From contig JAVZLH010000004.1 in the NCBI GenBank assembly GCA_038883855.1, positions 1-64,000 of the forward strand: a DNA stretch of 64,000 nt. The letters run 5' to 3'. The DNA comes from Candidatus Bathyarchaeia archaeon. GTDB lineage: Archaea; Thermoproteota; Bathyarchaeia; Bathyarchaeales; Bathycorpusculaceae. The translations under genes and the position numbers were made by a program. Below the pieces are notes generated by a model. The model saw nothing but the letters and a program-made list of their open reading frames with translations, had not been told where the DNA came from and ran no database searches. Position 1 is the first letter of the stretch, and every line of letters starts with the position of its first letter. This document shows positions 14,652-24,934 of this stretch, piece after piece.

Positions 14652-14827
14652 AAAAGTGTTTATGGAGGCAACATGATGAGGGATAGAGTTCTCCGGAGGA
14701 ATCAATGGATTCACGGCTCAAGCTAAGCCGCAAATTCCAGAGCGTGTAGACAAATCGTCACTCGTTCTTGCCAAAACTTTCTGTAAGATTGTTTATCCGC
14801 ATTTTGTATCTCCAGTGGGGGTTAACA

Positions 14828-16507
14828 ATGGAGGTCATGACAGGAGCTGAAGCTCTCATAAAAGCCCTTAAGGAGCAGGGCGTTGAGATTATTTTCGGCA
14901 TACCAGGAGGCGCCGCTCTCGACATTTACAATGCTCTATGCGACTCAAACATTAGGCATATTCTAATGAGGCATGAGCAATGTGCAGCGCATGCAGCAGA
15001 TGGATACGCCCGCGCATTAGGGCGCGTTGGAGTTTGCATGGCTACTTCGGGACCTGGTGCAACAAACTTAGTGACTGGCATAGCTGCTGCCTATATGGAT
15101 TCGTCTCCGGTGGTTGCTCTTACAGCCCAAGTTCCAACAACTTACATAGGCAGGGATGCTTTTCAAGAAGCAGACATCACTGGCATAACCAATCCTATAA
15201 CCAAACATAACTTCCAAGTGAGAACCCCTTCAGAAATTCCTTCAGTGGTTAAGAAGGCATTCTTTATTGCCCATTCTGGAAGACCAGGTCCAGTTTTGGT
15301 GGATTTTCCAAAGAACGTCCAAGCAAGTTCAGCCAAGATTGATTTCAGCAACGACATTAAGCTTCCTGGTTACCGTCCAAATTACGAGCCCCATCCATTG
15401 CAAGTTAAGAAGGCTGTTGAGTTGCTTTTGCAAGCTGAGAGACCTATGATAGTTGCTGGAGGTGGGGTTATAGCCTCTAACGCTTCAGCTGAACTAATTT
15501 CGCTTGCGGAGCTTCTTTTGGCACCGGTTGCAACGACGCTTATGGGTAAGGGCTGCATTCCAGAAAATCATCCTTTGGCAACTGGAATGATGGGGATGCA
15601 TGGAACGGTTGCGTCGAACCGCTTAATTCAAGAGGCAGATGTCATCCTTGCGGTTGGCGTGAGGTTTTCAGATAGAACAATTGGCAGGATAGACGAGTTT
15701 GGCAAAGACGTGAGAATCATACATATTGACATAGACTCGGCTGAAATAGGTAAAAATGTCGAGGCCCACGTGCCAATAGTAGCTGATGCCAAGCGCGCAT
15801 TAAACGAAATCCGTAAACTGCTTCAGGAAAACTTCAAAAAGAAAGAACGGTCGGTTTGGATGGCTAAACTTAAGGAACTAAAGGAGCAGCTTGAGGAAAA
15901 AGCAAATTGCACAGAAGGTATAAAGCCGCCCAAGTTGATGGTTGAAATTCGCAAAATGCTTCCCGAAAACGCCATAATAACAACTGAAGTCGGTCAACAT
16001 CAGATGTGGGCGGCGCTTCATTTAAAGATTTACAAGCCTAGAACCTTCATATCATCTGGTGGACTTGGGGCAATGGGTTTTGGGTTTCCAGCCGCTATAG
16101 GCGCCAAAGTAGCTTGTCCAAATGTCCCGGTAGTAGATATTGCTGGGGATGGCAGTTTCATAATGAATGAACAAGAGCTGGCCACTTCAGTTACCGAGCA
16201 AATTCCAGTAGTGGTTGTTATTTTGAACAATTCGATGCTTGGAATGGTTGCACAGTGGCAGAGACTTTTCTATAAAAGGCGATACTTTGCTGTCAATTTG
16301 GGCAAGGTTCCCGACTTTGTAAAGTTGGCAGAGGCTTATGGTGCGCAAGGTTTCCACGTTCAATCAATCGAAGAATTTTCTTCAGCGTTCAAAAACGCGT
16401 TAAAAAGCGATGTCACAACCGTTATAGACGTGCCCATTCATCCAGAAGAAAACGTTTTTCCAATGGTGCCTGCTGGAAAGGCATTAAAAGAAATGATGTG
16501 GGAGTGA
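14828..16507 (+). CDS. ilvB: Acetolactate synthase large subunit
   Basis: MTGAEAL, RHEQCAAHAADG, TSGPGATN, GDGS ThDP motif. Start reassigned to ATG 14828, after SD GGGGGT. Confidence 0.97.
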   Translation: MEVMTGAEALIKALKEQGVEIIFGIPGGAALDIYNALCDSNIRHILMRHEQCAAHAADGYARALGRVGVCMATSGPGATNLVTGIAAAYMDSSPVVALTAQVPTTYIGRDAFQEADITGITNPITKHNFQVRTPSEIPSVVKKAFFIAHSGRPGPVLVDFPKNVQASSAKIDFSNDIKLPGYRPNYEPHPLQVKKAVELLLQAERPMIVAGGGVIASNASAELISLAELLLAPVATTLMGKGCIPENHPLATGMMGMHGTVASNRLIQEADVILAVGVRFSDRTIGRIDEFGKDVRIIHIDIDSAEIGKNVEAHVPIVADAKRALNEIRKLLQENFKKKERSVWMAKLKELKEQLEEKANCTEGIKPPKLMVEIRKMLPENAIITTEVGQHQMWAALHLKIYKPRTFISSGGLGAMGFGFPAAIGAKVACPNVPVVDIAGDGSFIMNEQELATSVTEQIPVVVVILNNSMLGMVAQWQRLFYKRRYFAVNLGKVPDFVKLAEAYGAQGFHVQSIEEFSSAFKNALKSDVTTVIDVPIHPEENVFPMVPAGKALKEMMWE

Positions 16508-16513
16508 AAAGGT

Positions 16514-17050
16514 TTGGAAAATGGAAATCAAGAACAACATTACGTTATCGGTGCAATAGTTGAGCATCAACCGGGAGTGTTGTTCAGAGTTACAAGTTTG
16601 ATTAGACGGAGGGGTTTTAACATACAAAGCATATCTGTTGGACCGACAGAAAAAAAAGAAATTGCAAGAATAACATTAGTTGTTACCGGAGACAAAAAGA
16701 TTGTGGAGCAAGTTGTTAAACAACTGAACAAGCTTGTTGAAGTAATAAAAGTAAGCATAATAAACCCTGAACGGGCAGTTGTCCGCGAGCTTGCATTAAT
16801 AAAAGTTAACGCTCCGAGGGGCGTTAAGTCAGAGATAATTAACTACGCGAAAATCTTTAAGGGTCACATAGTTGACGCTTCACCAAATTCTTTAACAGTC
16901 GAAGTCACCGGTGATTCTGACAAAATCGACGCTTTCATAAAGCTTTTAAAGCCTCATGGAATTAAAGAAGTAGCTAGAACCGGTATAACTGCTCTTTCAA
17001 GAGGAATAGAATCCGTTAATAATAAAAAGGAAGGTGGAAGAACTCTATGA
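16514..17050 (+). CDS. ilvN: Acetolactate synthase small regulatory subunit
   Basis: [21 protein letters not shown] domain, [14 protein letters not shown]. Confidence 0.95.
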
Positions 17051-18036
17051 AAAAAGTGTATTATGATTCAGACGCAAACTTGAATATCTTGAAAGATAAA
17101 AAATTGGCTGTAATAGGATATGGAAGCCAGGGAGAAGCCCAAGCGAAAAATCTCAAAGATTCAGGTTTGAACGTGGTCATTGGCGTTAGACAAAATGGAG
17201 AGTCGTGGAAGAGGGCGGAAAAAGACGGTTTTGAAGTATATCCTATTTCAGAGGCAGTGAAGAAGGGCGATATCGTATTACTCTTAATTCCAGACACTTC
17301 CCAACCAGACGTCTACAAAGACTCAATAGCCCCATATCTAACTGAGGGAAAAACCATAGACTTTGCACATGGCTTCAATATCCACTACAAACAAATAATC
17401 CCACCCAAAAACGTCGATGTTATCATGGTAGCTCCAAAAAGCCCTGGACCAAGAGTAAGAGAAACATACCTCAGCGGCTTCGGTGCACCGGCACTTATAG
17501 CTGTATACCAAAATTACACTGGACAAGCCAAAGAAACAGCCTTGGCAATTTCAAAAGGGCTTGGATGTACCAGAGCCGGTGTACTAGAAACCACATTTAA
17601 AGACGAGGTTGAAAGTGACCTAATAGGCGAGCAAACAGTTCTCGTTGGAGGATTAATCGAACTTATAAAGAAAGGGTTCGAGGTTCTGGTTGAAACTGGC
17701 TATCCGCCAGAACTTGCCTACTTTGAAGTTTGCAACGAGGCAAAATTGATAATGGACCTAATCTATCAGGGAGGCATAAGTGGAATGTTAAAAGCTGTTT
17801 CGGACACCGCGAAATATGGCGGCTTAACTGTTGGACCAAAAGTTCTAGATGAACACGTCAAAGAAAACATGAGAAAAGCCGCTGAGAATGTTAAGAATGG
17901 AAGCTTTGCCAAAGAATGGATAGAAGAGCATAGAAAAGGCGAGAAAAAACTGAAAGCTTTAATGAAAGAAATGGAAAACCACGAAATAGAGCGTGTAGGC
18001 AAGTTCCTAAGGAAAATGGCTGGCATAGAAAAGTAA
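17047..18036 (+). CDS. ilvC: Ketol-acid reductoisomerase
   Basis: [37 protein letters not shown]. Confidence 0.98.
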
Positions 18037-18064
18037 ACTGTAACGCCAAAATTTTTCGGGATAG

Positions 18065-19330
18065 ATGAACACAGTGAACATCAGTGAAAAAATTTTAGCG
18101 AAGGCCTCTGGAAAAAAGAACGTAAGCCCAGGAGAAATTGTTGAAGCCACCGTGGATATGGCGATGATTAATGAGATAACTGGTCCATTAGCAATTGAAG
18201 CCTTCCATAAGATTGGGGTCGAAAAAGTTTGGGACAAAAAGCGAATAGTAATGGTTTTAGACCACCAAGTTCCAGCAGACTCTGTTAAATCGGCGGAACT
18301 TCATAAAATAATGAGGGAATTCGCTAAAGAACAGCAAATCCCAAATTTCTATGATGTTGGATTTGGCGGAGTATGCCATCAAGTTATGGTTGAAAAGGGA
18401 CACGTAAAACCCGGAGAACTAATTGTGGGCGCGGACTCTCACACTTGCACTTACGGCGCTTTAGGAGCTTTTGCAACGGGAGTAGGTTCCACGGAGATTG
18501 CCTCTGTCTTCGCAACTGGCAAAATATGGCTGAAAGTTCCGGAAACAATAAAAATAAATGTGGAAGGCGTGTTTCAAAAGTTTGTTACAGCAAAAGATCT
18601 AATTCTAAACCTCATCGGGCAAATTGGAGCCGACGGGGCAACTTATAAGGCTATGGAATTTGCTGGTTCAACAATTGAACGTTTAAGCGTAGGTGAAAGA
18701 ATGACGCTTTGCAACATGGTTGTGGAAGCAGGAGCCAAGACTGGAATTGTTAACCCAGACGAAAAAACACTGGCTTATGTAAAAAACAGAACTAGCGGAT
18801 CATTCAAACCTTTGAAAAGCGACCCAGACGCTAATTACGAAAAAACAGTTGACTTAAGTGTTGATGAGCTAGAACCGCAAGTTGCATGCCCCCACTCCGT
18901 GGATAACGTGAAGGCTGTTTCTGAAGTGGAGGGGATCCCCATAGACCAAGCCTTCATAGGCTCATGCACCAACGGCAGAATCGAAGACCTAAGACTAGCG
19001 GCAAGCATCATTAAAGGAAAGAAAGTTAAAAACGGAGTGCGAATGCTCATAACTCCAGCCTCGCAAGAAGTGTATTTAGACGCCCTAAAGGAAGGCTTAT
19101 TGGAAATATTCGTTGAGTCTGGAGCATATGTTTGCAGTCCAACTTGCGGAGCGTGTTTCGGCGGGCACATGGGCTTACTTGCCGACGGGGAAACTTGCAT
19201 AAGTTCTTCTAATAGAAACTTTGTTGGAAGAATGGGAAGCCCTAAAGCAAAAATATACTTAGCCTCACCAGCCACGGTTGCAGCCTCGGCGGTTAAAGGC
19301 GAAATAACAGACCCTAGGGAGCTGAAGTAG
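18065..19330 (+). CDS. leuC: Isopropylmalate/citramalate isomerase large subunit
   Basis: DHQVP, GVCHQ, GADSHTCT, GSCTNGR, CGACFG, NRNFVGRMG. Confidence 0.95.
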   Translation: MNTVNISEKILAKASGKKNVSPGEIVEATVDMAMINEITGPLAIEAFHKIGVEKVWDKKRIVMVLDHQVPADSVKSAELHKIMREFAKEQQIPNFYDVGFGGVCHQVMVEKGHVKPGELIVGADSHTCTYGALGAFATGVGSTEIASVFATGKIWLKVPETIKINVEGVFQKFVTAKDLILNLIGQIGADGATYKAMEFAGSTIERLSVGERMTLCNMVVEAGAKTGIVNPDEKTLAYVKNRTSGSFKPLKSDPDANYEKTVDLSVDELEPQVACPHSVDNVKAVSEVEGIPIDQAFIGSCTNGRIEDLRLAASIIKGKKVKNGVRMLITPASQEVYLDALKEGLLEIFVESGAYVCSPTCGACFGGHMGLLADGETCISSSNRNFVGRMGSPKAKIYLASPATVAASAVKGEITDPRELK

Positions 19331-19828
19331 ATGAAAGTTCATGGAAAAGCCGTGGTTTTCGGAGACGATGTCAACACCGACGTGATTATTCCAAGCAAAT
19401 ACTTAACTTTGCTTGACCCTAACGAGTTGGCGAAACACGCCATGGAAGGCTTAGACCCGAAATTCCCGTCTAAAGCCCGCGAAGGCGTCATAATGATTGC
19501 TGGAAAAAATTTTGGCTGCGGCTCAAGCCGCGAGCAAGCTCCAATAGCCCTAAAACACGCAGGCGTAAAATGTGTTGTCGCTAAGTCTTTTGCCCGCATA
19601 TTTTACAGAAACGCCATAAACATCGGTCTACCTGTCCTAGAATGCTCTGCCATTAAAGAAAAAACAAGCGAAGGTGACGAACTAGTCGTAAACTTGGCGG
19701 ATGGACAAATAATAAACGCAACCAAAAACATTAGTTTCCAAGCTAATAAGCTGCCAGAATTTATTTTGGAAATCATAAACGCTGGTGGTTTAATAGAACA
19801 CTTAAAAAAGAGGTTGAAAAACTCATGA
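19331..19828 (+). CDS. leuD: Isopropylmalate/citramalate isomerase small subunit
   Basis: DVNTDVIIP, NFGCGSSREQA, SFARIFYRN. Confidence 0.95.
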   Translation: MKVHGKAVVFGDDVNTDVIIPSKYLTLLDPNELAKHAMEGLDPKFPSKAREGVIMIAGKNFGCGSSREQAPIALKHAGVKCVVAKSFARIFYRNAINIGLPVLECSAIKEKTSEGDELVVNLADGQIINATKNISFQANKLPEFILEIINAGGLIEHLKKRLKNS

Positions 19829-20859
19829 GTGAATATAGGATTGCTGTAATCCCCGGAGATGGAATAGGACCGGAAATAACAGATGCTACAATAAAGGTTT
19901 TAAATGCTGTGCGAGATGTTTTTCCCATCAAACTTGATTACGTGTTCCTCGAAGCTGGGGACGCGTGTTTCCGGAAAAGAGGAGTTGCGCTTCCAGAGGA
20001 AACGGTTGAAGCCATAAAAAATTCTCATGTTTGCTTGAAGGGGCCGGTAGGCGAAACAGCTGCGGATGTTGTTGTTAAGCTTAGGATGATGTTTGACCTT
20101 TACGCGAATATTCGCCCAATAAAGTCTTATGTTGGGGTTCCATGCTTGAGAGATGATATAGACTTGGTTTTTGTTAGAGAAAACACTGAAGACTTGTATA
20201 AGGGGTTCGAGTTCATGCTCAACGAAGATGTGGCTATAGGATTGAGAGTCATATCCAGAAAAGGATGTGCAAGGATAGCTATAAAAGCCTTCAGCACAGC
20301 CCGCTTAAGAAACAAAAAGCGAAAAGTCACAGCCATCCACAAAGCTAATGTGATGAAGAAAACTTGTGGTTTATTTGCAGAAGTATGCAGAGAAGTGGCA
20401 AAGGAATATCCAGAAATCACGTTTGAGGAACAATATGTTGACGCTGCATCTATGAGGCTGATTAAAGAACCGCAAAACTATGATGTTATAGTTACGACAA
20501 ATATGTTCGGCGACATCCTTTCAGATGAAGCAGCTCAACTTATAGGCGGGTTAGGCATGGCTCCAGGTGGGAATATAGGTGATAACTTTGCAATGTTTGA
20601 GCCAATACATGGGTCAGCTCCAACACGCACAGGAAAACATACGGCTAATCCATGCTCAATGATTTTGGCTTCAAAAATGATGCTTGAATGGCTAGGCGAA
20701 AAATACGGAGACAAAAACTGTTTGGAAGCAGCTAAAGCAATTGAAATTGGCGTTTCAGAGGCGCTGCGAAAAGGACTGTCGATTCCAGACTTTGGAGGCT
20801 CATTAACTACTTTAGAAATGAGTGAGGCTATAGCAAACGAAATAAAGAAAATGAAGTAG
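19825..20859 (+). CDS. leuB: 3-isopropylmalate dehydrogenase
   Basis: PGDGIGPE, RENTEDLY, HKANV, NMFGDILSD, EPIHGSAP; operon context. Confidence 0.9.
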   Translation: MSEYRIAVIPGDGIGPEITDATIKVLNAVRDVFPIKLDYVFLEAGDACFRKRGVALPEETVEAIKNSHVCLKGPVGETAADVVVKLRMMFDLYANIRPIKSYVGVPCLRDDIDLVFVRENTEDLYKGFEFMLNEDVAIGLRVISRKGCARIAIKAFSTARLRNKKRKVTAIHKANVMKKTCGLFAEVCREVAKEYPEITFEEQYVDAASMRLIKEPQNYDVIVTTNMFGDILSDEAAQLIGGLGMAPGGNIGDNFAMFEPIHGSAPTRTGKHTANPCSMILASKMMLEWLGEKYGDKNCLEAAKAIEIGVSEALRKGLSIPDFGGSLTTLEMSEAIANEIKKMK

Positions 20860-20871
20860 GAGGAATAGAAG

Positions 20872-22365
20872 TTGGAATATGTGAGAATTTTTGACACCAC
20901 TTTAAGAGATGGAGAACAAACTCCAGGGGTTTCCTTCACGCCCGAAGAAAAAATGGAGATAGCACTGCAACTTGACAGGCTTGGCGTCGATGTTATTGAA
21001 GTAGGTTTTCCATCTGCTTCAGAAGGTGAGTTAAACGCTGTAAAGAAGTTGGCGAAGGCTGGCTTAAACGCAGAAATCTGCGCCCTTGCGCGTATCGTAA
21101 AAAGCGATATAGACGCAGCAATGGCATGTGAAGTTGACTCTATACATGTGTTTGCTCCAACATCAAACGTTCAAATCAAATATGTTCTAGACAAGACTCC
21201 TGAACAGGTTCTGAAGGAAATCGAAGAATCTGTTAGGTACGTTAAGGCCCATGGTTTTATCTGCGAATTTTCCCCCATGGACGCAACTCGCACAGAACCC
21301 GAGTACCTCAAAAAAGTATGTGTGACTGCTCAGAACGCTGGAGTTGACAGAATAAACGTGCCTGATACTGTTGGAATCATGAGTCCGCCATCAATGAAGA
21401 AGTTTATAGAAGAGTTGAGGGAAGTTGTTAAAGTTCCGATAAGCGTCCACTGTCACAATGACTTTGGATTAGCAGTGGCAAATTCCCTTGCAGGAGTTGA
21501 TGGCGGAGCAACGCAGGTTCACGTCACGGTGAACGGCATAGGCGAAAGGGCTGGAAACGCCGCTCTGGAAGAGGTTGTGATGGCTCTCCACACGATATAC
21601 AAGAAAAAGACAAAAATCAACACGAAGTTACTTTATGAAACCTCACGGCTCGTCTCGCGGCTCACAGGAATTACACCTCAACCTAACAAAGCCATAGTAG
21701 GCGAAAACGCCTTCGCCCACGAGTCTGGAATCCACACCAAAGGAGTCACAATAAAACCAGAAACCTTTGAACCGATAAAACCCGAGTTGGTAGGTCGAAA
21801 AAGGAAAATTGTAGCCGGCAAGCTCGCCGGAAGACAAGGAATAAAAGCTGAACTTGCGTCGGCGGGAATTCATCCAACCGATGAACAATTGAAAGAAATC
21901 TTGAACCGCGTGAAAAGCCTAGGAGACAAAGGGAAAATTGTCACGGACACGGATCTTTTCGCCATCGCAAGATCTGTCATAGGAATGCCTGAAGAGAAAA
22001 TCGTCAACTTAACGGACTTCGCCGTCGTCACCGGAAGCGGGACCACTCCAATGGCTTCTGTTAAGTTGACAGTTGACGGGAAAGAATATATTGCTGCAGA
22101 AACAGGCGTTGGACCCGTGGACTCTGTGATTAAAGCTATACAAAAAATTGTAAGCGAGCTGGTTAATGTCAGATTGACGGAGTATAGGCTTGAAGCCTTA
22201 ACAGGCGGCTCTGACGCTATTGCCGAGGTAATAATAAAGGTTGAGGACAAGTACGGAGAAATAGTTTCAGCCAGGGGCGCGGGCGAGGACATAGTTAAGG
22301 CAAGCGTTGAGGCTATGATAAACGGAATAAACAAGTTGCTCAGCAAAAGGAGGAGCAAACGCTAA
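20872..22365 (+). CDS. leuA: 2-isopropylmalate synthase (archaeal type)
   Basis: FDTTLRDGEQ, HCHNDFG, GIGERAGN, allosteric domain; follows leuCDB. Assignment as leuA rather than cimA rests on context. Confidence 0.8.
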   Translation: MEYVRIFDTTLRDGEQTPGVSFTPEEKMEIALQLDRLGVDVIEVGFPSASEGELNAVKKLAKAGLNAEICALARIVKSDIDAAMACEVDSIHVFAPTSNVQIKYVLDKTPEQVLKEIEESVRYVKAHGFICEFSPMDATRTEPEYLKKVCVTAQNAGVDRINVPDTVGIMSPPSMKKFIEELREVVKVPISVHCHNDFGLAVANSLAGVDGGATQVHVTVNGIGERAGNAALEEVVMALHTIYKKKTKINTKLLYETSRLVSRLTGITPQPNKAIVGENAFAHESGIHTKGVTIKPETFEPIKPELVGRKRKIVAGKLAGRQGIKAELASAGIHPTDEQLKEILNRVKSLGDKGKIVTDTDLFAIARSVIGMPEEKIVNLTDFAVVTGSGTTPMASVKLTVDGKEYIAAETGVGPVDSVIKAIQKIVSELVNVRLTEYRLEALTGGSDAIAEVIIKVEDKYGEIVSARGAGEDIVKASVEAMINGINKLLSKRRSKR

Positions 22366-22440
22366 ATCTCTTCCCTCGTAAGTTCCTCTTCTACACGAAC
22401 CATCGTTAAAATATCATTTAAGGGAAATTAACCTAGAAAT

Positions 22441-22455
22441 CGCAAAATTTATATA
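22441..22455 (+). promoter_or_regulatory. BRE-TATA promoter of the thr leader/thrBC
   Basis: CGCAAAA-TTTATATA; predicts a transcription start around 22478-22482, just 5' of the leader ORF. Confidence 0.75.
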
Positions 22456-22477
22456 CAGGGTTGCTTGAGTCACTTTC

Positions 22478-22629
22478 CGAGTGGTTTGGCTTGAAAGTCG
22501 CTAGTCCCCTAACGCAAATAACAACTACAACAGGAACAGGATCTCGTTAGGGGACCAGACGAAGCCAAACTCGTTTGCTTGTTTGCGCTGTTTTGCTTTC
22601 GTCTGGTCTTTTGTGAGGTGAAATAAGAT
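22478..22629 (+). promoter_or_regulatory. Putative thr attenuator (alternative RNA stems)
   Basis: Perfect 11-bp stem 22504-22514/22545-22555 and 9-bp stem 22484-22492/22562-22570. A competing perfect 11-bp stem 22553-22563/22598-22608. Anti-SD 22597-22604 can pair with 22616-22623, which overlaps the SD. Confidence 0.8.
22491..22550 (+). CDS. Threonine-rich leader peptide MKVASPLTQITTTTGTGSR (thrL-like)
   Basis: TTG...TAG, 19 aa. Six Thr codons (four consecutive: ACA ACT ACA ACA) plus one Ile, directly upstream of thrBC. Confidence 0.85.
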   Translation: MKVASPLTQITTTTGTGSR

Positions 22630-23714
22630 TGAAGGCTGGCAATAAGTTTCGGCGTGCCGCCGCCAATTTCGGAGATAAGAGTCTAGTTCAAGGCAGTTGC
22701 TTCAATGATAAGCGTGAACTTTATCCGCTGCTGGTTCAGAAACAGAAAAGTTGCGAGAAAACTCTTGTCTTTAATCATGTTGAGGCAATTGCCCCAGCTT
22801 CTTCGGCGAATCTCGGCGCTGGGTTTGACGTTTTCGGCGTAGCATTGGATGCGTTATTCGACAAAGTTTCTGTTGATGTCATAAAAGGTGGCAGCGGCAT
22901 TAAAATTTCTGTTGAGGGAAAAGGCTCAGAGCTTATTCCAACCGAACCAAACAGAAACACTGCTGGGATAGTTGCTAAGGCTTTATTGAAATTCTCTAAC
23001 AAAAGTTGCGGTCTCGCCATAAACATTGAAAAGGGAATACGTGCTGGCAGTGGTTTAGGAAGTAGTGCAGCAAGCGCCGCAGCCGCTGCAATAGCCATAA
23101 ACGAAGCTTTACAATTAAACCTTCCAAAAAGTGAACTCATAAAGTTTGCAGCATTAGGCGAAGTGGCAGCCGCTGGCGTCCCGCACGCGGATAATGTTTC
23201 TCCATCTATTCTAGGATTTTTCACTTTAATAGCCTCAAACAACCCGTTTGATGTTGTACAACTGCCCATGCCCAAAAACGTCAAATTCGTTATAGTGACG
23301 CCAGATATAGTTCTGGAAACCTCTTTAGCGCGTTCAGTTCTTCCAAAGAAAGTAAACTTTTCAGATGCCATCAGCAACATTGCACATGCATCAGCATTTG
23401 TAACTGGCATCATGACAAACAACATAGCTTTAATGGGAAAAAGCATGAACGATTCGCTCGCTGAACCATACAGAGCAAAATTAATCCCAGGCTTAATGGA
23501 AGTTAAAAAGAACGCCTTGGAAGCAGGCGCAGAGGGAATCGCAATAAGCGGGTCAGGACCCTCTATTTTGGCGTTAGTAGACTCATCGAAAAAAGTTGAG
23601 GACAAGGTTATGAAGGCAATGAAAGAAGTTTTTGAAAAACATGGAATAGGAAGTGAAGCTGTGATTGCGAAGCCCGGTCATGGAGGGAAAGTTGTTAGGA
23701 GAGAAGAGGCTTGA
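22629..23714 (+). CDS. thrB: Homoserine kinase (GHMP) with N-terminal extension
   Basis: APASSANLGAGFD, GSGLGSSAAS, HADNV, ISGSGPS; SD GAGGTGA at 22615-22621. Confidence 0.95.
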   Translation: MKAGNKFRRAAANFGDKSLVQGSCFNDKRELYPLLVQKQKSCEKTLVFNHVEAIAPASSANLGAGFDVFGVALDALFDKVSVDVIKGGSGIKISVEGKGSELIPTEPNRNTAGIVAKALLKFSNKSCGLAINIEKGIRAGSGLGSSAASAAAAAIAINEALQLNLPKSELIKFAALGEVAAAGVPHADNVSPSILGFFTLIASNNPFDVVQLPMPKNVKFVIVTPDIVLETSLARSVLPKKVNFSDAISNIAHASAFVTGIMTNNIALMGKSMNDSLAEPYRAKLIPGLMEVKKNALEAGAEGIAISGSGPSILALVDSSKKVEDKVMKAMKEVFEKHGIGSEAVIAKPGHGGKVVRREEA

Positions 23715-24934
23715 TTTCTTTAAGGTGTATAAGTTGCGGAGCAGAATACTCCATCAATGACACAGTTTACACTTGTAGAAAATGCGGCGACTTACTTGAA
23801 GTAAAGTTCGATTTAAAAGAGTTGAAGGAAAAGCTAGACGAGGCGGATTGGAGGCAGAGGCGAATATGTGTTTGGAAATATAGGGAGTTTCTTCCAGTTC
23901 TTGACGAATCTAAAATTGTAACTTTGCATGAAGGCGGTACGCCGCTTTACAAATGCGATAAGCTTGGCAAGAAACTTGGAGTTAAGAGCTTATATGTGAA
24001 GAATGAGGGAGCGAACCCAACTGGTTCTTTTAAAGATAGGGGAATGACCGTTGGCGTTTCTAAAGCGTTGGAGCTTAAGGCAATGGCGGTTGTTTGCGCT
24101 TCAACTGGCAACACTTCGGCTTCATTGGCTGCTTACGCAGCTAAGGCTGGCTTAAACTGTGTAGTGCTTATTCCCTCTGGAAAAATAGCTCTTGGAAAAC
24201 TTGCGCAGGCAATGATGTATGGGGCTAGTGTGGTGGCGGTTAAAGGCAACTTTGACGACGCCCTCCAAATAGTTTTGGAAGCAAGCAAAAATCTCGGCCT
24301 ATACTTATTGAACTCTATAAACCCGTTTAGGATAGAGGGACAGAAAACCTCAGCCTTCGAAATCTGCGACCAGTTAGGATGGCGCTCTCCAGACAGGGTA
24401 ATTTTGCCAGTTGGAAACGCTGGAAACATAACAGCTTACTGGAAAGGATTCAAAGAGCTAAGAAATTTAGGAATTATTGAGGAACTGCCTAAAATGACGG
24501 GTATACAGGCGGTTGGAGCCAACCCAATCGCAAAAGCCTTCGCAACAAAAAGCAGCCAAATAGAGCCCGTTAAAAACCCAGAAACAATAGCCACGGCAAT
24601 CCGCATAGGCAACCCAGTAAACTGGAAAAGGGCGCTGAACGCTATGCGAGAATCTGGTGGAACAGCCATAGCAGTCACAGACGACGAAATAGTTTATGCA
24701 CAAAAACTCTTGGCGAGAACGGAGGGAATCTTTGTTGAACCCGCCAGCGCAGCAAGCATAGCTGGACTAAAAAAGCTAGTTGAAAACAAAGAAGTTGACT
24801 CAAACGAAACCATTGTATGTGTAACCACTGGCCATGGACTGAAAGACCCAGAAGCTGCCATAAAAGCTTGCGAAAAGGTTGTTGAAATCAAGCCAAACCT
24901 AGAAGCATTGAAAAAGGCATTAAACCTTAATTGA
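23711..24934 (+). CDS. thrC: Threonine synthase
   Basis: N-terminal CxxC...CxxC, NPTGSFKDRG PLP Lys, ASTGNTS, PVGNAGN, TGHGLKDP. Confidence 0.97.
   Translation: MISLRCISCGAEYSINDTVYTCRKCGDLLEVKFDLKELKEKLDEADWRQRRICVWKYREFLPVLDESKIVTLHEGGTPLYKCDKLGKKLGVKSLYVKNEGANPTGSFKDRGMTVGVSKALELKAMAVVCASTGNTSASLAAYAAKAGLNCVVLIPSGKIALGKLAQAMMYGASVVAVKGNFDDALQIVLEASKNLGLYLLNSINPFRIEGQKTSAFEICDQLGWRSPDRVILPVGNAGNITAYWKGFKELRNLGIIEELPKMTGIQAVGANPIAKAFATKSSQIEPVKNPETIATAIRIGNPVNWKRALNAMRESGGTAIAVTDDEIVYAQKLLARTEGIFVEPASAASIAGLKKLVENKEVDSNETIVCVTTGHGLKDPEAAIKACEKVVEIKPNLEALKKALNLN

Follow-up and report, generated by a model that had tools for sequence, protein, structure and literature searches.

We found that the thrB-thrC operon of a thermophilic, uncultured hot-spring member of Candidatus Bathyarchaeia is preceded by a leader that is likely a threonine-sensing leader-peptide attenuator. 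In the window, by which we mean the whole stretch of 64,000 nucleotides that was analysed and whose numbering is used throughout, the leader combines a short uORF rich in threonine codons with a central RNA segment that has two alternative pairing partners, and this anatomy, the codon content, the competing pairings and their conservation in relatives are observed directly. Attenuation by leader peptides belongs to the textbook mechanisms of bacteria but is, to our knowledge, not established in Archaea, and in the full text of open-access papers and bioRxiv we found no archaeal precedent for it.

Anatomy of the thrB-thrC leader

The leader and its surroundings contain the following elements, in order along the plus strand.

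22441-22455, plus strand: BRE/TATA promoter element CGCAAAATTTATATA, composed of CGCAAAA and TTTATATA (sequence read)
22484-22492, plus strand: 5' arm of stem C, GTTTGGCTT, a perfect 9 bp with 22562-22570; overlaps the uORF start codon
22491-22550, plus strand: leader uORF MKVASPLTQITTTTGTGSR, TTG start, 19 codons, TAG at 22548-22550; six Thr and one Ile
22501-22514, plus strand: region 1, 5' arm of stem A, with a perfect core at 22504-22514
22512-22538, plus strand: sensor codons, ACG at 22512-22514, ATA (Ile) at 22518-22520, ACA ACT ACA ACA at 22521-22532 and ACA at 22536-22538
22545-22570, plus strand: region 2, the shared segment, with the 3' arm of A (22545-22558), the 5' arm of B (22553-22569) and the 3' arm of C (22562-22570)
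22570-22591, plus strand: U-rich spacer, the loop of hairpin B (sequence read)
22592-22608, plus strand: region 3, 3' arm of hairpin B, nearly invariant in sequence among the aligned leaders
22609-22612, plus strand: U4 tract (TTTT) immediately 3' of hairpin B; T4 or T5 in 16/16 aligned leaders
22615-22621, plus strand: thrB SD, GAGGTGA, 7 nt upstream of the TTG at 22629
22629-23714, plus strand: thrB, homoserine kinase (NF002288, 347 bits, cut-off 194)
23711-24934, plus strand: thrC, threonine synthase (TIGR00260, 401 bits, cut-off 167), with a 4-nt overlap with thrB

Upon reading the sequence, we recovered at these coordinates every element that a preliminary description had placed here, namely the promoter, the uORF, stems A, B and C, the TTTT tract and the SD, and the family models identify the two downstream genes as the thrB and thrC it had named. 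The uORF ends 78 nt before thrB-thrC, and its stop codon lies inside the 3' arm of stem A (22545-22558). Stem A is a perfect 11 bp between 22504-22514 and 22545-22555, extended in an inverted-repeat search to 14 nt at 93% (22501-22514 with 22545-22558), while stem B is a perfect 11 bp between 22553-22563 and 22598-22608, extended in the same way to 17 nt at 88% (22553-22569 with 22592-22608). The mutual exclusion that had been proposed for A and B does not apply to the perfect 11-bp stems, which share only 3 nt and occur together, with A shortened, in the MFE fold; it does apply to the extended stems, and the true mutual exclusion is between extended A plus C and extended B. The SD and start codon of thrB lie 6 nt behind hairpin B, and TTTCGTCT (22597-22604) can pair with AGGTGAAA (22616-22623) through 8 pairs, 2 of them G-U.

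Three stems of at least 9 bp arose together in 0/3000 dinucleotide-preserving shuffles of 22478-22628, and among the same shuffles a perfect stem of at least 9 bp was found in 120/3000 and one of at least 11 bp in 9/3000. The overall folding energy alone is not exceptional, the leader having an MFE of −49.4 kcal/mol (shuffles −42.2 ± 3.9; z = −1.85; 11/200 shuffles equally stable).

Among 15 aligned leaders the TATA element is invariant and is accompanied by a BRE-like CGCAAAA or CGTAAAG in both clades of relatives described below, and transcription would start near 22478, as placed from the usual archaeal spacing between TATA and start. The GGTGAA of the thrB SD shows no variation in 16 aligned leaders and is followed by the start codon after 6-8 nt (7 nt in G000). 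The 3' end of 16S rRNA was searched for in the assembly and not found, so a standard anti-SD sequence is assumed. The thrB product carries a poorly conserved N-terminal extension of ~50 residues, the NF002288 match beginning at residue 53; this extension puts the start codon next to hairpin B, and upon reading the sequence between the TTG at 22629 and the conserved core we saw no further canonical in-frame start. Across leaders the extension measures 27-50 residues and is confined to loci with a leader, and the leaderless relatives G014 (= L036) and G068 have a thrB without it.

A scan of 21800-23200 against Rfam with E up to 10 returned 4 weak, unrelated matches, none of which reached its gathering score, and the best of them (E 0.09) was an unrelated snoRNA model inside leuA. 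The thr leader and T-box models gave no match in the same interval at E up to 10, and no curated aptamer model of the described metabolite riboswitch classes matched there. The tRNA scan found one tRNA-Met only, far from the leader.

Conservation and codon content across relatives

The preliminary description had staked its proposal beforehand on the conservation of the Thr-rich uORF and the stems in relatives, and both are conserved: two genera of Candidatus Bathyarchaeia yielded 17 distinct leaders, every one upstream of thrB-thrC. These were drawn from G000, G001, 13 of 14 metagenome loci and G238, G240, G241 and G243, and they fall into clade 1 (4 leaders) and clade 2 (13 leaders). Between G000 and G001, 165/203 leader columns are identical, compared with 44/83 upstream of the BRE and 73% at thrB third positions; judged by this comparison, the leader is under constraint, being conserved above both the pre-promoter sequence and the third codon positions of thrB.

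Both competing pairings are maintained, 1:2 in 93.4% of 256 cells (16 leaders) and 2:3 in 97.1% of 205 cells, and where five leaders carry an A-to-G change at one region-2 position, the U in both partner arms is still pairable. The two clades lengthen the 1:2 hairpin differently, clade 2 contiguously by CGTCT/AGACG and clade 1 by stem C, its outer extension, with GTTTGGCTT present in 4/4 clade-1 leaders; both extensions overlap the 5' arm of hairpin B. The covarying stems that had been anticipated did not materialise: compensatory two-sided changes were sought in 1:2, 2:3 and 3:4 with covariation tests and RNAalifold and none was found, because the sequences are too similar. What speaks for the stems among relatives is conservation and one-sided compatible changes only.

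In all 17 leaders a TTG start lies 12 nt upstream of the region-1 core, in frame with a TAG in the second arm, and the uORF runs for 19-24 codons, 5-11 of them Thr. The loop occurs in six lengths, each 2 mod 3 (32, 35, 38, 41, 44 and 47 nt), and the Thr run, which varies from 2 to 9 consecutive codons (TT, TTT, TTTT, TTTTT, 6, 8 and 9), shifts by 3n indels only. The 128 Thr codons comprise 43 ACC, 38 ACT, 32 ACA and 15 ACG; AC is kept throughout and the third position varies. The cognate codons persist while the remaining uORF codons vary. In the DNA contigs of 4 sequencing runs, one strain variant differs at 22523 and 22526, both changes being synonymous within Thr codons. Furthermore, three uORF positions swap Thr and Ile among relatives; isoleucine would probably be sensed as well as threonine. 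At this locus the contigs of the 4 runs hold strain variants and contig breaks only.

The conservation of the frame counts for less as evidence than 17/17 suggests, because most length changes fall in the ACN triplet repeat, which slips in threes anyway, and since TTG and TAG both sit in stem arms their conservation could be structural alone. These properties suit an untranslated cis-regulatory RNA whose loop of ACN repeats is recognised by a tRNA, a metabolite or a TRAP-like protein and whose frame is incidental, an explanation we regard as unlikely. It would account for the lack of a coding signature outside the Thr codons, where the uORF shows no third-position bias (summed entropy by codon position 4.95/7.36/8.83 in clade 2 and 5.62/4.06/1.62 in clade 1), for the position of TTG and TAG within conserved stem arms, for a triplet repeat that changes by threes whether coding or not, and for the weak SD-like element before the uORF TTG (GAGYGG in 4/4 clade-1 leaders, GTGG or GTGA in 13/13 clade-2 leaders); the antisense strand is likewise open, the stem being palindromic. 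However, the repeat encodes the amino acid that the operon itself produces, and does so in the TTG/TAG frame, a coincidence that we roughly estimate at 1 in 48 (1/16 XYN units times 1/3 frames). The alternation of Thr and Ile at three positions and a 1-nt indel in L035 that falls just outside the uORF frame also speak for translation, and neither an Rfam match (E up to 10, T-box included) nor a visible Stem-I-like element points to an RNA of this kind.

Folding of the minus strand is comparable to that of the plus strand (z = −1.99), and an ORF of equal length exists there because stem A is palindromic. That the function resides there, in the Cys/Ser-rich small ORF MASSGPLTRSCSCCSCYLR or in an antisense sRNA, is scarcely credible, as its frame reads Cys/Ser in clade 1 and Gly/Ser in clade 2, its start codon is absent in the clade-2 leader examined (L038), and the variable third positions of the sense strand are its first positions. 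The conserved promoter and SD are moreover on the plus strand, and downstream of the minus-strand ORF lies only the leuA 3' end in antisense.

Proposed switch and its output step

From the arrangement of these elements we infer translation of the uORF, ribosome stalling, the direction of the switch and its output step. The promoter at 22441-22455 would give a transcript from near 22478 in which the uORF follows after the first ~13 nt, with its Thr codons in the loop between region 1 (22501-22514) and region 2 (22545-22570), and region 2 would have two alternative partners, region 1 in stems A and C and region 3 (22592-22608) in hairpin B. With ample Thr-tRNA, the ribosome would reach the TAG in region 2 and cover this region, and after its release the strong 1:2 hairpin would re-form; in this OFF state the single-stranded region 3 and U-rich spacer would pair with the RBS and/or meet termination or decay factors. 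When Thr-tRNA is scarce, a ribosome stalled on the Thr codons would keep region 1 from region 2, and in the resulting ON state the 2:3 pairing would fold the spacer away and leave the thrB SD and start codon free. Hairpin B would have to be the starvation (ON) structure, because region 2 stays available while the ribosome is stalled. The main Thr run of clade 2 is ~18 nt behind region 1, and a ribosome stalled on it would leave both arms outside its footprint, so the separation of the arms would have to be steric.

Folding with a ribosome footprint, a check put forward in the preliminary description, failed to bear out the switch, as masks had inconsistent effects, and in partition-function folds helix 1:2 can still close around a masked loop; forced ON and OFF folds of all 17 leaders were used instead. 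The two folds are nearly iso-energetic, and the RBS is opener in the forced ON than in the forced OFF fold in 15/17 leaders at 37 C and in 16/17 at 55 C and 70 C, the U-rich spacer and region 3 pairing with the purine-rich RBS in the forced OFF folds. Dinucleotide-shuffled spacers occlude the RBS in the OFF state as strongly as the native ones do (mean z about −0.5), and only 2/17 leaders at 37 C and 3/17 at 60 C fall in the lowest 5% against shuffles; RBS opening in the forced folds is a composition effect. The proposed anti-SD pairing 3:4 is possible in 98.4% of cells, the background on sliding is 49-70%, covariation is lacking, and in MFE folds with region 2 withheld the SD pairs with region 3 in only 4/17 leaders.

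This effect of composition also fits a translated uORF with hairpins in a constitutive role (mRNA stability, standby site or translational coupling), in which the Thr run would be neutral and prone to slippage. The length of the run is free, from 2 to 9 consecutive Thr, and the leaderless relatives G014 and G236 manage without the leader, G014 retaining only a hairpin, T4 and SD directly before thrB. An origin of the G014 arrangement by deletion between the two CGTCTGGTC repeats was considered; what is recognisably homologous is confined to 19 nt at 95%, in the 3' part. We nevertheless consider a constitutive role improbable, since a neutral repeat would not hold AC in 128/128 Thr codons while position 3 varies and would not be expected at thrBC specifically, where it forms the sole intergenic small ORF with a Thr run of at least 4 before a long ORF in the whole G000 genome. 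Additionally, both competing pairings are kept in two clades via different flanks.

A fourth segment forming a terminator is absent, and the sole hairpin followed by T4 is 2:3. This hairpin B, with 13-17 bp, rich in G+C, followed by T4-T5 and invariant in the aligned leaders, has the look of a bacterial terminator, and the leader might be read as a classical transcription attenuator in which B with U4 is the intrinsic terminator and 1:2 the anti-terminator, or as a pyrBI-like variant in which a ribosome at the stop codon masks the terminator. We hold this to be very unlikely. Its logic is reversed, given that stalling on Thr codons would form B and terminate transcription when threonine is needed, and archaeal RNA polymerase terminates at oligo-T without requiring a hairpin, T4 being short for this purpose. 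Hairpin-plus-T sites are also not enriched in the region (16 versus 22.8 ± 4.5 in shuffles), and a constitutive terminator would be odd in G014, where hairpin, T4 and SD stand right before thrB.

Returning to the threonine-sensing attenuator, a fuller version of it is conceivable, and we offer it tentatively: the leader may have an independent archaeal origin, with stalling on the Thr run flipping a three-segment switch that governs how ribosomes load on thrB and also, in the exposed U-rich spacer, factor-dependent termination or decay of the FttA/aCPSF1 type, so that transcription-translation coupling is used for regulation and triplet slippage sets the gain.

Relation to known attenuators and distribution

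The leader of the E. coli thr operon (thrL) contains a mix of Thr and Ile codons, and the archaeal leader resembles it in having a short Thr/Ile-rich ORF just before threonine-biosynthesis genes and a central RNA segment with two alternative partners, the position of the ribosome being the presumed signal. Unlike thrL, it has three competing segments only, without a separate 3:4 terminator, and its sole hairpin followed by U would form upon stalling; its Thr codons are found not inside region 1 but in the loop that joins it to region 2, and its uORF stop codon is within region 2. It further differs in its archaeal host and BRE/TATA promoter, in a setting where hairpin-dependent termination is not the rule, and in matching no Rfam family in sequence or structure. 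The translational attenuation of ermC and cat is a parallel in one respect, as leader-ORF stalling would likewise redirect a shared segment and free the next RBS, and such attenuation without a terminator suits archaea. The trigger would differ, being uncharged tRNA-Thr at hungry codons as opposed to a drug plus nascent peptide. Apart from Thr/Ile and what the stem arms encode, the uORF peptide is not conserved, which would argue for hungry-codon stalling. Compared with ermC and cat, sequestration of the RBS is in the archaeal leader a candidate output, with an OFF occlusion that matches shuffled spacers. T-boxes, which are bacterial, sense tRNA charging in leaders of amino-acid genes through alternative hairpins; they act independently of translation, their Stem I presents one specifier codon in a loop, and their antiterminator carries the conserved T-box sequence, features that the archaeal alignment lacks.

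Among bacterial elements, mycobacterial polycysteine leaderless uORFs are reported to act as Cys-responsive attenuators of operon expression; they share with the archaeal leader a short uORF with a run of one amino acid's codons and differ in being bacterial, leaderless and Cys-specific (bioRxiv 10.1101/834739). The uORFC-8-2 motif upstream of cysS in Rhodobacterales was proposed as a candidate ribosome-mediated attenuator from comparative data alone. Like the archaeal leader, it shows conservation of the start codon, cognate codons in tandem and two stems; it differs in being bacterial, in having two Cys codons in place of a long variable run, and in preceding a tRNA synthetase gene (PMC8632094).

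If the attenuator operates as proposed, the thrBC leader would provide a testable system for archaeal ribosomes as sensors of tRNA charging, in which one could ask whether translation initiation or termination is controlled where hairpin-dependent terminators are not used, and it would give a view of how Archaea exploit transcription-translation coupling. It might also serve archaeal genetics as a compact, thermostable switch that responds to an amino acid, and it could be a search template for other archaeal amino-acid operons.

The leader is sparsely distributed. Its exact pattern occurs in 5/332 genomes of the family, and a covariance model matched 3/151 relatives, one of these a remnant. 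No Thr-run uORF was found upstream of thrB in 16 other loci of the family (one with only 129 nt upstream), and the leader was found in 0/29 other thrB loci sampled across the phylum. The single Thr-run match, L068, was discarded, its region not being shared with congeners. Within G000, a scan for leaders rich in other amino acids gave 212 candidates, and 0 of the 10 most suggestive, which were inspected, lay before a cognate gene; likewise, we found no leader upstream of the probable ilvB at 14768. A Cys-rich ORF on the minus strand of contig C4 proved to be the mirror image of the thrBC leader locus. Finally, in genus g66 (L056 and L057), other conserved hairpins are located upstream of thrB, without a Thr uORF.

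The thr leader and its neighbourhood

The elements that the preliminary description had placed in the candidate Thr-sensing leader upstream of thrB-thrC (BRE/TATA, upstream ORF or uORF, stems A, B and C, TTTT, SD and the TTG start) proved correct base for base. They are listed here with the two downstream genes.

Features of the thr leader and operon (the first eight were read from the sequence)
22441-22455, + strand: BRE/TATA element CGCAAAATTTATATA
22491-22550, + strand: leader uORF, TTG start, 19 codons, MKVASPLTQITTTTGTGSR
22504-14 with 22545-55, + strand: stem A, perfect 11 bp
22484-92 with 22562-70, + strand: stem C, perfect 9 bp
22553-63 with 22598-608, + strand: stem B, perfect 11 bp
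22609-12, + strand: TTTT tract
22615-21, + strand: SD, GAGGTGA
22629, + strand: thrB start codon TTG
22629-23714, + strand: homoserine kinase ORF (NF002288, 347 bits against a cut-off of 194; match from residue 53)
23711-24934, + strand: threonine synthase ORF (TIGR00260, 401 bits)

In 3000 dinucleotide-preserving shuffles of 22478-22628, a perfect stem of at least 11 bp arose in 9 and three stems of at least 9 bp in 0, and an inverted-repeat search extends stem A to 14 nt (93%) and stem B to 17 nt (88%). Total folding energy does not set the leader apart (z −1.85; 11 of 200 shuffles were equally stable), so it is the individual stems and their conservation, rather than bulk stability, that carry the case. 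Upstream of the leader lie leuC, leuD, leuB and a 2-isopropylmalate synthase gene. Counting these genes, we observe seven co-directional ORFs (14768-22365) directly 5' of the leader, ordered acetolactate synthase-like, two ORFs, leuC, leuD, leuB and leuA. Judged from its translation, the first is probably the acetolactate synthase large subunit, and the second and third are probably ilvN and ilvC, assigned without a Pfam check; the 117-nt gap before the first (14768) contains no amino-acid-rich leader.

Conservation of the uORF and the alternative pairings

Among 41 related genomes searched at the DNA level, a single congener, G001, has the leader (80% identity); aligned with the window's genome, G000, it shows a 12-nt insertion that yields a Thr run of eight consecutive codons. 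Between these two genomes the leader is identical at 165 of 203 columns, gaps included, compared with 44 of 83 for the 80 nt upstream of the BRE, and thrB third codon positions, at 73%, also fall below the leader. A protein-guided scan of metagenome contigs placed the leader at 13 of 14 thrB loci, and the exact pattern occurs in 5 of 332 family genomes (G000, G001 and three species of a second genus, g13), with 0 matches to the reversed pattern as a control. Run against 151 relatives from 12 families, a covariance model built from 16 leaders gave three matches, of which G014 is only a remnant (E 0.0065); it also placed the leader in one further g13 genome, G241. Within the two genera, thrB stands without the leader in G014 and G236, and four genomes (G002, G237, G239 and G242) gave no thrB match to the query used; the Thr-run uORF is absent upstream of thrB in 16 other family loci and at 29 further loci taken from across the phylum. 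An apparent match of this kind at locus L068 was rejected. The carriers are Candidatus Bathyarchaeia or Bathyarchaeales MAGs, and leader DNA is present in hot-spring metagenomes. Taken together, this survey of sequences indicates that the leader is real and conserved, yet narrowly distributed.

The uORF was compared across 17 distinct leaders, four from clade 1 (genus g1) and 13 from clade 2 (genus g13). The Thr-rich uORF proposed earlier is kept in every one of them, with 19-24 codons, 5-11 of them for Thr. In 17/17 leaders its TTG is placed exactly 12 nt ahead of the core of region 1 (22501-14), and the frame closes at a TAG within region 2 (22545-70). The inter-arm distance is 32, 35, 38, 41, 44 or 47 nt, six values that are each 2 mod 3. 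The frame evidence is weakened because most indels fall in a triplet repeat, which slips in threes anyway, and the TTG/TAG conservation because both codons lie within stem arms. In clade 1 the run is 4, 6, 8 or 9 Thr long, and in clade 2 it reads TT, TTT, TTTT or TTTTT. The Thr codons of the 17 leaders are ACC (43), ACT (38), ACA (32) and ACG (15), and Thr alternates with Ile at three further positions (ACR/ATA, ACC/ATC). One subgroup carries ...TLIDVTITTGTG... in the uORF, a strain variant from another run has two changes within the Thr run (22523 and 22526), both synonymous, and locus L035 has a 1-nt indel immediately 5' of TTG. Third-position bias is absent outside the Thr codons, which fits a leader peptide of indifferent sequence and equally means no classical coding signature. 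Contigs of runs X4 and X5 break at or near the leader (22506-22703), one ending at 22506 and the other starting at 22703, which may reflect strain heterogeneity in the Thr repeat breaking assemblies.

No second intergenic small ORF in the whole G000 genome both precedes a long ORF and carries at least four Thr in a row, and none of the candidate leaders for other amino acids looked convincing. The palindromic nature of stem A produces a mirror-image ORF, MASSGPLTRSCSCCSCYLR, on the minus strand of 22491-22570; an uncritical search for amino-acid-rich leaders takes it for a Cys leader. We treated it as an artefact, given the palindrome, a composition that differs by clade (Cys/Ser in clade 1, Gly/Ser in clade 2) and the missing start codon in the clade 2 leader examined, L038.

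Region 2, GTTAGGGGACCAGACGAAG..., has region 1 or region 3 (22592-608) as alternative partners, the 2:3 pairing being hairpin B. Region 3 reads CTTTCGTCTGGTC, followed by T4-T5 and, 1-3 nt further on, by the SD. The 1:2 pairing is a contiguous 16-bp helix in clade 2 (CGTCTGGTCCCCTAAC with GTTAGGGGACCAGACG). In clade 1 it consists of a helix of 11-14 bp and, set apart from it, the 9-bp stem C. Pairing is retained in 93.4% of cells for 1:2 and 97.1% for 2:3 across 16 leaders; the stem covariation sought since the preliminary description did not appear, with two-sided changes at no pair of either helix. An A-to-G change at one region 2 position, found in 5 leaders, is pairable with U in both partner arms. 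The 1:2 hairpin is lengthened by different sequences in each clade, and both extensions overlap the 5' arm of B; our reading is that the competition as such has been selected for. RNAalifold has B forming alongside the inner part of A, so the perfect 11-bp stems are not truly exclusive, and the mutual exclusivity once assigned to A and B holds for the extended stems instead. The sensing half of the earlier interpretation is, on this comparative evidence, well supported.

Proposed direction of the switch and possible output at the thrB ribosome-binding site

By our own calculation from the sequence, with the footprint taken as −12 to +15, a ribosome whose A site holds a Thr-run codon would, in clade 1, sit over most of region 1, and one stalled in the clade 2 run would stand between both arms; in either clade region 2 would be left free for region 3. 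Hairpin B would thus mark starvation and, for a biosynthetic operon, should be the ON state. A ribosome at TAG would cover region 2, and the 1:2 hairpin could re-form after its release. B with U4 as a terminator is ruled out by this logic, B being the predicted starvation/ON structure; terminator hairpins of the bacterial type number 16 in this region against 22.8 expected and so show no enrichment.

Forced folds of the 17 leaders make ON and OFF nearly iso-energetic, with means of −59.1 and −56.3 kcal/mol at 37 °C and of −19.3 and −18.2 kcal/mol for the two states at 70 °C. In 15/17 leaders at 37 °C and 16/17 at 55 °C and 70 °C the ON fold leaves the ribosome-binding site (RBS) more accessible than the OFF fold does, the mean unpaired probability of the RBS rising from 0.29 (OFF) to 0.48 (ON) at 37 °C. 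The OFF-state partner of the SD is region 3, as suggested in the preliminary description (MFE in 4/17 leaders), or the U-rich loop of B. Dinucleotide-shuffled spacers occlude the RBS about as much (mean z about −0.5), so in these models the effect reflects a pyrimidine-rich spacer facing a purine-rich RBS rather than any specific anti-SD sequence.

The thrB start codon lies directly behind hairpin B in every leader-bearing locus, and ThrB there has an N-terminal extension of 27-50 residues (~50 in clade 1, ~27 in clade 2), seen at 22629-22780 of the window and at L002, L034, L035, L037-L049 and L062. The extension occurs only where the leader is present, leaderless relatives being without it; it is basic and poorly conserved, and most of the differences that G000 and G001 show within it are non-synonymous. 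Ahead of the conserved HVEAIAPA core, thrB of G000 offers no further canonical start codon in frame. That the start codon is kept behind B at the cost of an extension favours, as an indirect argument, control at the RBS. Termination or decay of the FttA/aCPSF1 type in the exposed U-rich spacer would act in the same direction. The 16S rRNA 3' end was not found in any contig of G000 (assembly 85% complete); an SD-like 4-mer lies at −16 to −4 of the first start codon in 251 of its 947 long ORFs.

Known attenuators, leaderless and odd loci

Compared with the bacterial thr leader, the Bathyarchaeia leader would be similar in working but is not a member of the family: it has no separate terminator and no match to any Rfam model (scan with E up to 10), its competing segments are only three, its sensor codons lie in the loop, and region 2 contains the stop codon of its uORF. 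In its presumed function it comes nearer to erm/cat-type translational attenuation, here triggered by hungry codons, and to uORFs of mycobacteria reported to respond to amino acids (bioRxiv 10.1101/834739). Searches of open-access papers and bioRxiv preprints brought up no description of leader-peptide attenuation in archaea; an earlier report elsewhere may exist. The element is probably a functional Thr(/Ile)-sensing leader-peptide attenuator, in a domain where such attenuation is not known to be established.

A small hairpin, T4, SD and start codon are all kept in the leaderless G014 locus (L036 = L004/L054), where the ~110 nt before thrB hold a 5-bp hairpin, TCTTTT and GGGGTGAA, followed by the GTG start. 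The locus also has a 12-codon ORF (TTG AAG ... AGG TGA), the stop of which shares GTGA with the start of thrB. Its upstream region may be a deletion derivative of the leader, with clear homology only over the 3' 19 nt (95%). At the metagenome locus L046 the leader is intact and the thrB frame hits stops after ...GAGFDVFG, about 70 codons in, a frameshift that is either an assembly error or a pseudogene. Finally, two loci of genus g66 (L056 and L057) lack the conserved Thr uORF. Their conserved 5' region, 100-300 nt ahead of thrB, is of another kind; it has two hairpins, both strong (GTCGTC...GACGAC and AAATGTTGTTG...CAACAACATTT), and may be a further regulatory leader of thrB unrelated to this one.
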